The translations under genes and the position numbers were made by a program. Below, one piece after another: positions 1-5,197 of a stretch of DNA of 5,197 bases (the first letter of the stretch is position 1; every line of letters starts with the position of its first letter). Origin of the DNA: a virus (Duplodnaviria > Heunggongvirae > Uroviricota > Caudoviricetes); IMG/VR virus record IMGVR_UViG_2778261360_000011, positions 1-5,197 of that record; one strand, given 5' to 3'. The notes beneath the pieces were generated by a model. It did no database searches and had not been told where the DNA came from. It saw only the letters and a program-made list of their open reading frames with translations.

Positions 1-291
1 GAAGCAGAAAAAGCTTATTATGCTTCCATCGGAAACGATGATCTGGCAGCCTGAGTTCACAGATAAAATACTCTCCAGGAAACCCGGGGCGGTTCATCTT
101 TCGTAGCCAACTACTATGATGCGCTTGGAAACTACATCCGCAATCTTCGTGACCCGTCACGCCCACAGGATGCAGCAACAAAGAGTTATGTTGATGGGGT
201 TGCAGAAACAAACCTGAGCAGAACGCTACGAACTCCAGAACCGATATCAACTTTACCAGGCGTTGAGCAACGTAAGAATAAGATTGTTGCA

Positions 292-1815
292 ATGGATGAT
301 TCAGGAGACCCAATCATGGTTCTCCCGGAATCTGGGAGCGCTACTGATGTCATGTTGCAGCTTGCTGCCACCGATGGGTTTAAAAATATCGGTTCCTGCC
401 CTGATGTGGCCACATTAAGAAATACTGAACCTTCGTCAGTAAACCAGCAAATTATTGTCAGAGGTTATTATAGCGATACCCCCGGTCTTGGAGGTGGGGT
501 GTTCATGTCGTTTGGCAGTTCTGAAGCTGACGATGGTGTGAATATTTTTGTTACCCCCGGAGGTAAGCGCTGGAAGCGAACAGGAAGCCACATCGATATT
601 CCGGTAGAGAATGGCGGCATGATGGTGTCTAGGACGGCTGAGCAAAACAGTGAAGCCTTTGAACGTCTGACCGCATGCCTTCCATATGAAGGAGGTACGC
701 TCAGGCTCAATGGATTTTACGATATTAAGTATGGCGCTATCGTGCCTCCACGTGTCACGCTGGAGGGGTGCGGTATGGATTCCTGTGGATTAATTAAAAC
801 AGGTAACGATATTAAAACCGTTCCGGATCGCATGTGGCAGGGTGTACCACACAGCTTCTCCAAAGACTTTATTGTTGCGGTAGATATGGATAGTGACACA
901 TCAGGTGATTTAAGCGGGACACAAACAAGAAGCACCAGAATAATTGGATTGAGTATTCTAAATACTGCGCCAAATCCTTGTGATTACGGGATATATAGCG
1001 CTATCAGTTACAATGTGCGCCTTCAGGACCTGTATATTCATAGGGTGAAAACCGGTTATCGCACTAGTGATAGCTGGTTGCAGACATGGGCAAACATTAC
1101 TATTCAGGATGTCGTTACTGGAGTTAAAATCGAAGCAGGTGGAACCACATATAATTTAAACAATATTTATGTGAAAACATGTTCAGGTGTTGGATTCGAT
1201 CTTAAAAATCCGACATATAGCACAATGACAGGATGCGCTGTGGATTTTGCAAATGGAACCGCATATAAATTTGTGGATTGCACCGGGATTGTGTTAGATG
1301 GTTGTGGGTGCGAAGAAATAACAGGGACACAGATATATGCTCGGGGTTCTAGAATTTGTATTAATGGTTTTAGAGGGGTAAATCCAAAGAAAGGAGATGC
1401 AGAATCTTTTATACTTGATTCATCTGTAATTAATTTAAACTCATCTTATCTTCCTGATTATGTTGGAGGTGGTACAGATAAATACACCAAGATAAATGCG
1501 GCGGTGATAAATTCGAATAACTCTATATTTCCTGACCATGCAAACAATAAAATCACATGGGGCGGTGTTCAATCCATAATTAATATTCATGATGAAAGAG
1601 GTGGATACTCAGTAACAGGAAATTCAACGTATACTGTTCTTGGGAGGGTTGAGGGAGGGGTGATTACAATACTCTCTCTACTGCCACCTACGGGAGATGC
1701 TAATTTTTACCCAATTGGTACAAGGTGGGAGTTACTGTATCCATCGGCTGTAGGTCCGTACAAATGGATTTTGTTAGCGGATAAAATTTGGCGTGTTGCA
1801 GGATCATCATCGTAA
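292..1815 (+). CDS. Phage tailspike / tail-fiber receptor-binding protein, beta-helix type (probable polysaccharide-binding or depolymerase domain); 5' end unresolved
   Basis: ORF track 292-1815 (507 aa), stop TAA 1813-1815. Translation has the repetitive N/G/T/I-rich pattern typical of right-handed parallel beta-helix tailspike domains (e.g. NLNNIYVKTCSGVGFDLKNPTYSTMTGCAVDFANGTAYKFVDCTGIVLDGCGCEEITGTQIYARGSRICINGFRGVN), with an N-proximal GGGVF motif. Context fits: directly upstream of an O-antigen-modifying acyltransferase. ATG 292 has no Shine-Dalgarno sequence, and the same frame is open and protein-like back to position 67 (NYYDALGNYIRNLRDPSRPQDAATKSYVDG...) with no ATG/GTG/TTG, so 292 is probably not the true start. 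Confidence 0.7.
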   Translation: MDDSGDPIMVLPESGSATDVMLQLAATDGFKNIGSCPDVATLRNTEPSSVNQQIIVRGYYSDTPGLGGGVFMSFGSSEADDGVNIFVTPGGKRWKRTGSHIDIPVENGGMMVSRTAEQNSEAFERLTACLPYEGGTLRLNGFYDIKYGAIVPPRVTLEGCGMDSCGLIKTGNDIKTVPDRMWQGVPHSFSKDFIVAVDMDSDTSGDLSGTQTRSTRIIGLSILNTAPNPCDYGIYSAISYNVRLQDLYIHRVKTGYRTSDSWLQTWANITIQDVVTGVKIEAGGTTYNLNNIYVKTCSGVGFDLKNPTYSTMTGCAVDFANGTAYKFVDCTGIVLDGCGCEEITGTQIYARGSRICINGFRGVNPKKGDAESFILDSSVINLNSSYLPDYVGGGTDKYTKINAAVINSNNSIFPDHANNKITWGGVQSIINIHDERGGYSVTGNSTYTVLGRVEGGVITILSLLPPTGDANFYPIGTRWELLYPSAVGPYKWILLADKIWRVAGSSS

Positions 1816-1880: not shown

Positions 1881-2855
1881 ATGGATGAGAAAGTAATCAA
1901 TATTAGGGCCGTAGCTGCTATTATGGTTGTAGTTCTTCATATTAATTCGCAGTATTTTTATGACATTACGAGCTACTGGCCTGTTTTCGCTTTGATTGGT
2001 TCAGCAATGCGGCCATGCGTGCCTATTTTTATAATGATTTCAGGGTATTTATTGATAGGAAGAGTTATCAGTTCAATTGATTTTATGAAGAGAAGAATAT
2101 CAAGACTTCTTCCTCCAATATTATTTTGGGGGGTGTTTTATGTTTTTTTTGTATCATTTGTTGGAAACGCACAAGTTTCAATAAATTCACTCATGTCAAT
2201 ATTAATTGATCCTCCAATGTTTCATCTATGGTATCTTTATTTGATTGTTGGCGTTTATCTCATGATGCCTATTTTATCATCTTGGTATTTGTCGGCATCA
2301 TTTGGTGATAAGATTTTTTATATTTCGCTTTGGTTTGCATGCCTGCTTGTTGCTCAGTTTGGCCTTGGTGTTGAAATTATAAATAGATATTATCTTGGTC
2401 AATTTTCAACATACTCGTTTTATTTAATAGTGGGTGCTTTTGTTAAGGAAATTTCATTTAAGTACAATGTAAGATGGTCTGTTCCAAGCATGGTTTATAT
2501 TCTAATTACATTACTAATAACAACTCTTACGATTTATGACTGTTATAATAATGGAGCGCCGTCAGAGAAGTATTATGAATACACAAATCCAATGGTTGTT
2601 CTTCAATCAATATTTCTATTTATGGCGTTAATTAAGCTTAACAAATCAAATTGGTTTACAAAAGTTGTTTCAAATTATTCCCTTGGAGTTTATTGTGTTC
2701 ATGTTGCGATAATATTACTAATATTCCCTACAATAAAGACAACAATAGATAATGCATTCCTTTCATACTTTGCATCTATTTCTTTAGTTCTGATCTCATC
2801 AGTTATAATTAGCTCAATTATCAGATTGGTTCCTTTTATAAAAAGTGCATCGTGA
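1881..2855 (+). CDS. Acyltransferase family 3 (AT3) integral-membrane O-acyltransferase, probable phage-encoded O-antigen acetylase (serotype conversion)
   Basis: ORF track 1872-2855. ATG 1881 is preferred over GTG 1872 because AGGTG at 1869-1873 sits 7 nt upstream of it. The protein is strongly hydrophobic with about 10 predicted membrane-spanning segments. It carries an N-terminal R-x10-H motif (NIRAVAAIMVVVLH) and an xSGY/F motif (FIMISGYLLIG), both characteristic of AT3 acyltransferases such as phage O-antigen acetylases. It has no C-terminal SGNH domain. GC is roughly 25-32% in lines I counted by hand, far below the flanking lysis genes (about 53%). Confidence 0.85.
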   Translation: MDEKVINIRAVAAIMVVVLHINSQYFYDITSYWPVFALIGSAMRPCVPIFIMISGYLLIGRVISSIDFMKRRISRLLPPILFWGVFYVFFVSFVGNAQVSINSLMSILIDPPMFHLWYLYLIVGVYLMMPILSSWYLSASFGDKIFYISLWFACLLVAQFGLGVEIINRYYLGQFSTYSFYLIVGAFVKEISFKYNVRWSVPSMVYILITLLITTLTIYDCYNNGAPSEKYYEYTNPMVVLQSIFLFMALIKLNKSNWFTKVVSNYSLGVYCVHVAIILLIFPTIKTTIDNAFLSYFASISLVLISSVIISSIIRLVPFIKSAS

Positions 2856-3109
2856 GTGCTTTAGTTGCATGAGACAAAAGCGGGACACACAAGGCTTTGC
2901 ATTGGTAACTGAATCCTCTGTACCTATCACATTGTCGTGGCACCTTACAAAGTTAGGCATCAAAAGCCACGTCATAGCTATGGAGCCAGAAAACACCTCA
3001 CCTATTCAGAATGTTTTTAGGGATTTCAATTAAACCATATATGTATTAATTGTGTATGATGGACTCACCAACTAAGGTGGGTCTTTATGCACAGTAAACG
3101 GTGGTTTCT

Positions 3110-3514
3110 ATGTCAGTTCAACTAACCAGTGAAACATTAAATCAATGGCTTAGTCTTGGTTCTCTAGCTGCGGTGATAGCAGGAGTACCTCCAGAAGTAG
3201 CGTTGGGGTCTTTGTCAGGAGCGGTAATTTTTGTTACCTCTGCGGTAGAGTACCCAATTAGTCGTCGCGTACTCTTGTCGATGCTTAGCTTTCTCTGTGG
3301 GCTTCTTTTCTACAAACCAGCAGCATCAATTCTTATAGGCGTAGCTAGCCTGATCCCTACTATCACGCAGGACTCTTTCGAGAAAGGGGTTGTTTTCTCT
3401 GCTGGCGCATTCGTGTCAGCAATCGTCGCAGTACGAATTGGCATCTGGCTCTATCACCGTTCCGATAATCCACGTGAGTTAATTCCGGGGAGAAAAGACG
3501 ATGGCAACGTATGA
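3110..3514 (+). CDS. Small multi-pass membrane protein (134 aa), putative holin-like, antiholin or lysis-accessory protein
   Basis: ORF track 3101-3514 (GTG start). ATG 3110 is preferred because GGTGG at 3100-3104 sits 5 nt upstream. Four to five hydrophobic segments (WLSLGSLAAVIAGV, ALGSLSGAVIFVTSAV, VLLSMLSFLCGLLFY, AASILIGVASLIPTI, VVFSAGAFVSAIVAVRIGIWLY) and a charged C-terminus ([19 protein letters not shown]). Its stop (TGA 3512-3514) overlaps the next gene's start by 14 nt. Function is inferred from position and topology only. Confidence 0.5.
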   Translation: MSVQLTSETLNQWLSLGSLAAVIAGVPPEVALGSLSGAVIFVTSAVEYPISRRVLLSMLSFLCGLLFYKPAASILIGVASLIPTITQDSFEKGVVFSAGAFVSAIVAVRIGIWLYHRSDNPRELIPGRKDDGNV

Positions 3515-3809
3515 GCTTTTTTTTCTTATCACCAATGCAGTTATTTGTACTGGCATAGCAATTCGCGTTGTCACATTTCGGCGTAACGGGTCACAACACC
3601 GAAGATGGGGAGGGTGGCTTGCTTATTTCCTGATTGTTGCTGCGGCCAGTATTCCTGTTCGTGTCGCCTATGCAATCTGGTTACGCACGCCAATGGCTGT
3701 GGATTTATCTGAGGTCATTATCAACGCTGTCATGCTCGCTGCGGTTATTAAAACGCGCGGTAACGTCGTTCAAATTTTCAAAGTATCGAGGTCTAAACAT
3801 GGAGATTAA
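3501..3809 (+). CDS. Putative holin (102 aa, 2-3 transmembrane segments, basic C-terminal tail)
   Basis: ATG 3501 is preceded by GGGGAG at 3487-3492 with an 8-nt spacer. Hydrophobic segments [42 protein letters not shown] and [19 protein letters not shown], a basic loop ([11 protein letters not shown]) and a charged C-terminus (KVSRSKHGD). It lies immediately upstream of the endolysin and overlaps its start by 11 nt. Confidence 0.65.
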
Positions 3810-4344
3810 ACAATTCCAGCGAGCTGCTGGTATTAGCGAGGCGCTGGCCGCACGCTGGTTTCTGCATATCACTGCTGCCATGAATGAGTTTGGCATTATC
3901 AAACCAGATGACCAGGCGATGTTTATCGCGCAGGTCGGGCATGAGTCCGGAGGATTTACCCGGTTACAGGAAAACTTCAACTACAGCGTTAATGGACTGT
4001 CCGGGTTTATCCGTGCCGGACGCATCACGCCGGACCAGGCCAGCACGCTGGGACGAAAAGCATATGAGAAGTCTCTGCCTCTGGAGCGCCAGCGTGCGAT
4101 CGCCAATCTGGTGTACAGCAAACGCATGGGGAACAATGCCCCTGGTGATGGCTGGAATTACCGAGGGCGCGGACTTATCCAGATTACCGGTTTGAATAAC
4201 TATCGTGATTGCGGAAACGGCCTGAAGGTTGACCTGCTGGAGAGCCCTGAACTGCTGGCGCAGGACGAATATGCGGCTCGTAGCGCGGCGTGGTTCTTCG
4301 CCAGCAAAGGATGCATGAATATACCGGCGATATTGCACGTGTAA
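3799..4344 (+). CDS. Endolysin, glycoside hydrolase family 19 (class I chitinase-like lysozyme); as encoded the ORF is 3'-truncated by an apparent -1 frameshift
   Basis: ATG 3799 with GAGG at 3788-3791, 7 nt upstream. The 236-aa ORF 3634-4344 in the track is an upstream extension artefact that overlaps the holin out of frame. The protein has GH19 hallmarks: GHESGG with the likely catalytic Glu at residue 49, a second Glu nine residues later (LQENF), [12 protein letters not shown], and AAWFFASKG. There is no signal peptide or signal-anchor-release (SAR) segment. The frame ends at TAA 4342-4344 (181 aa), but the conserved GH19 C-terminal block ([18 protein letters not shown]...KVLAV) is encoded in the next frame from 4323 to TGA 4425-4427. 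Confidence 0.85.
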
Positions 4345-4423
4345 CTCTGATTATCAATGGTGGCCGGAACGGCATCGACGACCGGCGCGCGCGGTACATC
4401 ACTGCCAGTAAGGTGCTGGCGGT

Positions 4424-4906
4424 ATGATCTGGGCATTCGCAAAAGCATACTGGAAACAGTTGGTTATCATGGCGATGCTTGCTGTTCTGGTCATATCAGG
4501 AGTTGTAGCCTGGAATGCACACGGCAGTCGTCAGTACGATGCCGGGTATGCGCAGGCGAAGAAAGACCGCAAAGCTGAAGATGAGATAGTTCGTCAGCAC
4601 TACGAACAGGAGAAATCGATCAATGAACGTGAAGCGCAGCATAGGATCGACCAGGCGCGCAATGATGCTCTTGATGCTGCCGCTCGCGCTGGCCGGTTGC
4701 AGCAACAGCTCGTTGCCATCCGTGAGCAGCTCAGGCACTATAACGCCATTGTCGGCGCTGGGTCGTCAGCCGCAGACACCGGAGTTTTGCTTTCCGACGT
4801 GTTCAGCAAATCTCTCGAGAGAAATAGACAACTGGCAGAGTATGCTGACCGGGCATCCGAAGCCGGAAGAGTCTGCGAAAAACAGTACGACACCCTGACC
4901 AGATAG
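4424..4906 (+). CDS. Rz-like inner-membrane spanin (i-spanin)
   Basis: ATG 4424 is the first start after the in-frame stop at 4409-4411, with AAGGTG at 4410-4415 upstream. N-terminal transmembrane segment (LVIMAMLAVLVISGVVAW) followed by a long charged, coiled-coil-like periplasmic region rich in Q/R/E/A (RIDQARNDALDAAARAGRLQQQLVAIREQLR) and a C-proximal Cys. It sits last in the lysis cassette. Confidence 0.8.
   Translation: MIWAFAKAYWKQLVIMAMLAVLVISGVVAWNAHGSRQYDAGYAQAKKDRKAEDEIVRQHYEQEKSINEREAQHRIDQARNDALDAAARAGRLQQQLVAIREQLRHYNAIVGAGSSAADTGVLLSDVFSKSLERNRQLAEYADRASEAGRVCEKQYDTLTR
4623..4898 (+). CDS. Rz1-like outer-membrane lipoprotein spanin (o-spanin), fully embedded in the +1 frame of Rz
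   Basis: ORF 4623-4898 lies entirely inside the Rz gene in the +1 frame. AGGAG at 4607-4611 precedes ATG 4623. Signal peptide with a lipobox (MMLLMLPLALAG-C, then Ser at +2), and a Ser/Pro/Thr-rich mature part. Alternative starts are the ATGs at 4662 and 4665. Confidence 0.7.
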   Translation: MNVKRSIGSTRRAMMLLMLPLALAGCSNSSLPSVSSSGTITPLSALGRQPQTPEFCFPTCSANLSREIDNWQSMLTGHPKPEESAKNSTTP

Positions 4907-5062
4907 CATGGCATTTTTCACGGTACTGATTTCCGGTGACGGTATATAAAACGGTACGGGAAAAATTGAGATTTGGAAAAATGTTATCACTCAATTGGTT
5001 ATGGTTATCGTAAATAATTGAGTGGGAATGATTTGACCCTGCACTATGAATGAAATAAATAT

Positions 5063-5086
5063 CCTCCGGCATAGCCGGAGGTTTTT
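5063..5086 (+). terminator. Rho-independent (intrinsic) terminator downstream of the lysis cassette
   Basis: Perfect 8-bp GC-rich stem (CCTCCGGC at 5063-5070 pairing with GCCGGAGG at 5074-5081), a 3-nt loop, then TTTTT at 5082-5086. An A-rich tract (AAATAAAT) precedes the stem, so it could also terminate transcripts from the opposite strand. Confidence 0.75.
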
Positions 5087-5197
5087 CAAATGCGCCTATA
5101 AGGCTCTCTTACCAGCCGCGCCCTAACAGGCGCACACGATCTGACATTTGCATCCAACTTCGTTACTTACGGCCCGTAAACGGGCTGCCCGGATAGG

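Follow-up and report, generated by a model that had tools for sequence, protein, structure and literature searches.

The endolysins of the phages SPN1S (structure 4OK7), epsilon15 and phiV10 are full-length proteins of 209 amino acids, whose genes overlap the preceding holin gene and meet the following Rz gene in an ATGA junction. The GH19 endolysin gene analyzed here occupies the same position in the lysis cassette and has the holin-endolysin overlap and, at the DNA level, the ATGA junction in common with these phages, but its product is only 181 amino acids long and lacks residues 174 to 209. A second described system is PaGH19Lys (structure 9EOI) of a P. aeruginosa cryptic prophage, which resembles the present GH19 gene in fold family, in its nine-residue active site and in its prophage origin. 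PaGH19Lys is full length, is a highly active muramidase and is used by its host for explosive lysis. The protein studied here, unlike PaGH19Lys, is truncated before I186, N187 and R196, and there is no hint of a use by the host. Our analysis makes it very probable that the deletion is a genuine and recent loss of one nucleotide, which makes the GH19 endolysin gene of a Uetakevirus-like prophage a pseudogene.

The window, i.e. the whole stretch of 5197 bp that was analyzed, is the entire short contig NJZW01000081.1 of the NCBI assembly GCA_002461335.1. It covers the right-hand end of a relative of phiV10, epsilon15 and SPN1S (genus Uetakevirus), a prophage located at the Escherichia yfgI site. 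DNA identity to phiV10/epsilon15 reaches 84–88% across approximately positions 3030 to 5033, and the order of the genes (tail fibre, conversion gene, holin-like, holin, GH19 endolysin, Rz/Rz1, attachment site) is that of phiV10/epsilon15. Gene order, gene lengths and DNA similarity to the type phages all identify a Uetakevirus-like lysis cassette. The features of the window are the following, with the supporting evidence in brackets.

1–96, plus strand: 3′ end of an IS3-family element, IS1203/IS629-like (terminal inverted repeat CTCCAGGAAACCCGGGGCGGTTCA at 73–96)
97–1815, plus strand: tail-fibre/tailspike gene, 3′ part only, codons 129–700 (98% identity to the L018 protein; Pfam Phage_tail_beta)
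1881–2855, plus strand: acyltransferase (Acyl_transf_3), low G+C, intact (PF01757, E = 7.4e-40)
3110–3514, plus strand: holin-like membrane protein (Phage_holin_8), intact, 134 aa (405 nt, as in phiV10 and epsilon15)
3501–3809, plus strand: holin (Phage_holin_3_7), intact (E = 5.1e-27; overlaps the endolysin start)
3799–4344, plus strand: truncated GH19 endolysin ORF, 181 aa (PF00182; native residues 1–173 followed by NIPAILHV)
4319–4320, plus strand: site of the single-base deletion, the missing G of the Lys174 codon AAG (alignments)
4320–4427, plus strand: out-of-frame endolysin remnant, native residues 175–209 (tblastn, frame 3; original stop TGA 4425–4427)
4409–4415, plus strand: Shine-Dalgarno-like TAAGGTG (read from the sequence; ends 8 nt before the Rz ATG)
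4424–4906, plus strand: Rz-like i-spanin (DUF2514), intact (E = 1.1e-41; length as in phiV10)
4623–4898, plus strand: Rz1-like o-spanin inside Rz, lipobox LALAGC, intact (translation; position and length as phiV10 p30a)
5034–5054, no strand assigned: host flank past the right end of the prophage, attR side, yfgI locus (homology breakpoints)
5055–5197, minus strand: end of an IS200C element with tnpA (100% identity to annotated IS200C copies)

The holin of 102 amino acids is a widespread protein, the identical sequence being listed in 685 blocks of the collection.

The endolysin frame, which opens at ATG 3799, lacks one G between positions 4319 and 4320, so that ATGAAGTAT has become ATGAATAT. 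In a multiple alignment with phiV10, epsilon15 and an E. coli prophage, the motif ATGAAGTATACC of the relatives corresponds to ATGAA-TATACC in the window, and the missing G belongs to the codon AAG of Lys174. The junction sequence that marks the deletion is GCATGAATATACCGG. The native frame is left after Met173, with the loss of the 36 residues 174 to 209 and the gain of eight aberrant residues (NIPAILHV), and translation stops at TAA 4342–4344, giving a product of 181 instead of 209 amino acids. A second ORF in frame 3 (4290–4427) ends with TGA 4425–4427, which overlaps the Rz start codon ATG 4424–4426. The endolysin locus measures 629 nt in the window as compared to 630 nt in 32 of the 32 phage records listed, and likewise 630 nt in E. 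coli among the matches listed (60 of 558). When the phiV10 and epsilon15 endolysins were aligned to the window by tblastn, residues 1 to 173 were found in frame 1 (3799–4317) and residues 174 to 209 in frame 3 (4317–4424); the frame-3 piece is 97% identical to the phiV10 endolysin (E = 1.9e-18).

These data agree closely with the sequence-only reading, which had proposed that a GH19 endolysin is interrupted by the deletion of one base near 4318–4322 and had named epsilon15-like phages for comparison. The phage GH19 assignment is borne out by the PF00182 profile, by the match to the SPN1S structure and by the DNA identity to the two type phages; the alignments place the gap inside the proposed interval, and its coordinates for the start and stop codons of the endolysin, of the frame-3 segment and of Rz are all correct. 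Restoring the G yields the protein of about 209 residues that had been anticipated (exactly 209). The frame-aware alignment suggested as a check gave, with tblastn, a frame switch at residue 173/174, and the match to phiV10 identifies the frame-3 segment as the C-terminus of the GH19 enzyme, as claimed. The ATGA junction between endolysin and Rz had been described as lost, which is the case since the endolysin now stops at 4342–4344. The loss of C-terminal residues also stands, but their number, given as about 35, is 36.

Intact alleles exist in very close relatives of this prophage. L009 (E. coli chromosome CP061272.1) and L018 (GCA_054887275.1) each have an endolysin gene that is identical to that of the window at 629/629 shared bases, plus the G. 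L067 (Logan SRR8350812) is 99.5% identical to the window across the whole prophage part; over 4958 nt it differs by 26 SNPs, and this G is the only indel. All three are integrated at yfgI as is the window lineage, and L018 and L067 also carry the same acyltransferase as the window. Unlike the window, however, L018 and L067 have an uninterrupted tail-fibre gene of 700 codons, and L009, L018 and L067 are devoid of IS200C at the junction.

Several other frameshifted versions of the same endolysin allele were encountered in run-level Logan assemblies, namely P0002, P0005 and P0006 of the 181-aa protein cluster, together with P0111, a frameshifted version of a closely related endolysin allele from a Logan run-level assembly. 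Inspection by eye of P0002 indicates the loss of one C in a CCCC run near 4139–4142, a typical error context. These four sequences could be read errors or independent inactivations.

The endolysin gene is not the only damaged gene of this prophage. Positions 1 to 96 are 93–97% identical to annotated IS1203/IS3-family transposase ends, which are found at thousands of E. coli genome locations. The translation from position 97 aligns with residues 129 to 700 of the 700-aa tail-fibre protein of L018 (98% identity), and in L018 and L067 the tail-fibre sequence continues upstream of the equivalent of position 97. Since the tail-fibre frame begins directly at 97 and is uninterrupted in the relatives, the gene has been split by the IS at codon 129 of 700. 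This insertion is a second, independent inactivating lesion of the prophage; with a split tail-fibre gene, infectious particles would not be made regardless of the state of the endolysin. At the opposite end of the contig, the free phage phiV10 can be aligned up to 5033 and the integrated prophages L009 and L018 up to 5054, and the sequence from 5055 onward is 100% identical to IS200C copies annotated in 2641 of 5426 genomes. This IS200C copy lies 21 bp outside the right end of the prophage and just before the host terminator hairpin, which precedes yfgI in L009 and L018. The contig therefore starts and ends inside multicopy IS elements, which explains why it is so short.

The acyltransferase gene has a GC content of 29–33%, and the identical 324-aa protein was found in 23 contigs. 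Its probable role is lysogenic conversion by O-antigen modification. At this position phiV10 has the oac gene, which runs in the opposite direction and shows no alignment to the plus-strand acyltransferase of the window; the locus looks like an exchangeable lysogenic-conversion cassette. One relative carrying the acyltransferase of the window, L065 (Logan SRR10917782, positions 10542–11016), shows an altered cassette, in which Rz was called as a 36-aa fragment and a separate Rz1-like ORF and where the gene that follows is an integrase and not yfgI.

The holins, Rz, Rz1 and the acyltransferase are intact, with lengths as in the relatives. Taken together, the evidence is that of ordinary prophage decay, and nothing indicates selection for a host function. 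One could nevertheless imagine that the lysis-defective state is maintained, the knock-outs of endolysin and tail fibre being favoured because they block host lysis on induction; an E. coli clone circulating in human guts may keep in this way the O-antigen acyltransferase, with its serotype conversion and phage exclusion. We consider such a maintained state unlikely; that the acyltransferase, holins and spanins are intact would be seen just as well if the lesion were very recent. If it were true, the window would capture an early, datable step of prophage domestication, and P0002, P0005, P0006 and P0111 might represent recurrent inactivation and not read errors.

The consequences of the frameshift for the protein were then evaluated against GH19 enzymes of solved structure. 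The PF00182 profile gives 35.9 bits for the truncated and the repaired proteins alike (cut-off 25.5), and for the repaired protein, E values of 2.6e-124 and 9.5e-32 were obtained with the structures 4OK7 (SPN1S endolysin) and 9EOI, respectively; both the Pfam profile and the solved endolysins thus place the gene in the GH19 family. Substrate binding and the positioning of the catalytic acid involve the asparagine of the GH19 I-N-G-G motif and the arginine downstream of it. In PaGH19Lys (9EOI), the active site is composed of H50, E51, E60, Y103, Q127, T129, I187, N188 and R197, and the large subdomain is formed by Met1-Leu55 and Pro155-Ser209 (PMC12329726). According to a HMMER alignment, the register of which was checked against Q127 and T129, the corresponding residues here are H48, E49, E58, Y106, Q128, T130, I186, N187 and R196. 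The 181-aa product keeps the first six of these nine residues (H48, E49, E58, Y106, Q128 and T130), including the two catalytic glutamates E49 and E58, which are equivalent to E51 and E60 of PaGH19Lys. I186, N187 and R196 are encoded solely in frame 3 past the deletion and are hence missing, so that the product is devoid of the C-terminal I-N-G-G and arginine. With the lost segment, the large subdomain is deprived of approximately two thirds of its C-terminal half. At the DNA level this is a GH19 gene, but the product is an incomplete GH19 domain. From the loss of I186, N187 and R196 and of a part of the large subdomain, we infer that the truncated endolysin would most likely be inactive and probably also misfolded or unstable.

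The persistence of both catalytic glutamates and of six of the nine active-site residues might suggest that the deletion is real but leaves a 181-aa protein with useful muralytic activity, lysis being weakened and not lost. This protein would act either alone or with a C-terminal peptide of 38 amino acids translated separately from ATG 4311 in frame 3, a codon which sits in the C-terminal frame immediately 3′ of AAAGG. We regard residual activity as very unlikely. The AAAGG sequence abuts ATG 4311 without any spacer, which makes a poor initiation site, and the part that is lost belongs to the large subdomain which builds the cleft. Furthermore, the C-terminal I-N-G-G...R segment is present in all solved GH19 relatives and in the best 120 homologues, with the exception of obvious frameshift variants. 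Likewise, no homologue ending at the equivalent of residue 173 was found among the solved structures and the best 120 database hits, barring this protein itself and an obvious frameshift variant.

The sequence-only reading had left the choice between an assembly error and a genuine inactivation in a domesticated prophage; of the second option, the word 'domesticated' finds no support in the tests made, since they show decay. An error of sequencing or assembly in the draft genome would mean that the true gene is intact, and several properties of the window would fit: it is a draft contig of 5197 bp bounded by repeats, its gene differs from intact alleles by nothing but the G, and the downstream frame is perfectly kept. 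The pseudogene shows zero secondary changes relative to the intact alleles. This absence of secondary change indicates that the deletion is recent; the lack of secondary decay fits a very recent event, yet it is equally the appearance of a sequencing error. Against an error, the assemblies of two further BioSamples carry the identical deletion. It was found in the ENA assembly ERZ28645516 (SAMN26286954), where 1305 nt match the window at 100% identity, and in ERZ28577367 (SAMEA7566582; L008), with six differences over 3198 nt; both are short metagenome contigs (1.3 and 3.2 kb), probably of low coverage. The recurrence was established by exact-protein look-ups. The exact Rz protein of the window occurs in five contigs, and 5/5 have the 181-aa endolysin. 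Of 74 loci retrieved, 69 have the intact gene and three the deletion, each of the three carriers having its own sample accession (an NCBI assembly in one case, a BioSample in the other two). Orthologues without a frame change and a lesion that recurs in independent samples are what characterizes a frameshift pseudogene, and both are seen here.

The local context of the deletion also argues against an artefact. The sequence GAAGTAT contains a single G between AA and T and is not a homopolymer; no run of at least four identical bases is present in the region 4200–4430. The G is present in the same context in L009, L018, L067 and 45 IMG/VR contigs, and the fact that near-identical E. coli prophages assemble with it shows that this context is not systematically error-prone. 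These 45 contigs carry the intact junction, and no IMG/VR contig carries the deleted one. More generally, exact searches for the deleted junction gave zero matches in the GTDB representative genomes, IMG/VR and the JGI metagenomes, indicating that the lineage with the deletion is rare. The call of a deletion rests, at the level of the sequences compared, on its recurrence across assemblies. With the two other BioSamples and the IS in the tail-fibre gene, genuine inactivation is favoured, and an error in the draft genome appears highly improbable.

The six differences between L008 and the window are located at the equivalents of positions 3041, 3397, 3947, 3987, 4850 and 4873, and four of the six are C-to-A changes. 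This suggests that the C-to-A changes are artefacts of oxidative damage or low coverage and not true divergence. Two non-synonymous changes in the L008 endolysin, S50C and S63R, had been considered as a sign of relaxed selection, and this was rejected on the grounds that four of the six differences are C-to-A.

We give almost no credence to a bypass of the lesion by programmed −1 ribosomal frameshifting or transcriptional slippage that would produce some full-length endolysin: the two frames overlap at 4284–4344 and a −1 shift near 4319 would give a near-native protein, but the region 4200–4430 contains neither an X XXY YYZ slippery heptamer nor a homopolymer of at least four bases, a Rfam scan of the window returned no element, and every relative examined is single-frame. 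The absence of the two-frame layout from the relatives points to a fresh lesion and not to a conserved recoding site, and a programmed −1 site was rejected for lack of both the heptamer and a conserved layout.

The genuine deletion may have an effect on the expression of the downstream spanin genes. Ribosomes translating the shifted endolysin would stop 79 nt upstream of the Rz start, the ATGA overlap would no longer operate, and Rz and Rz1 would depend on their own Shine-Dalgarno sequence. The Shine-Dalgarno-like TAAGGTG at 4409–4415 is conserved in phiV10, epsilon15 and one E. coli prophage. The claim that coupling to Rz is lost is thus correct as far as the ATGA overlap is concerned, but its impact is softened by this ribosome binding site of Rz itself. 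Folding of the RNA from 4345 to 4460 places the Shine-Dalgarno sequence and the ATG of Rz in a predicted hairpin (z = −1.29). The predicted hairpin, CUGCCAG...CUGGCGG, spans 4395–4426 and is not distinct from shuffled sequence. In this model, ribosomes completing the endolysin would normally open the Rz hairpin. As the z value is only −1.29, a polar effect on Rz is to be taken as a possibility, and reduced spanin expression would be possible but unsupported.

In conclusion, the finding is an ordinary one: in a prophage that is degrading, a gene of a well-known endolysin family has become a frameshift pseudogene. Annotations should label it accordingly and leave it without 'repair', and in prophage-prediction and induction studies the prophage is to be scored as defective. 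The importance of the finding beyond annotation is small, and it opens no new question. It does provide a clean case of very early prophage decay, in which an indel and an IS insertion are found without secondary mutations and can be compared with intact sisters.
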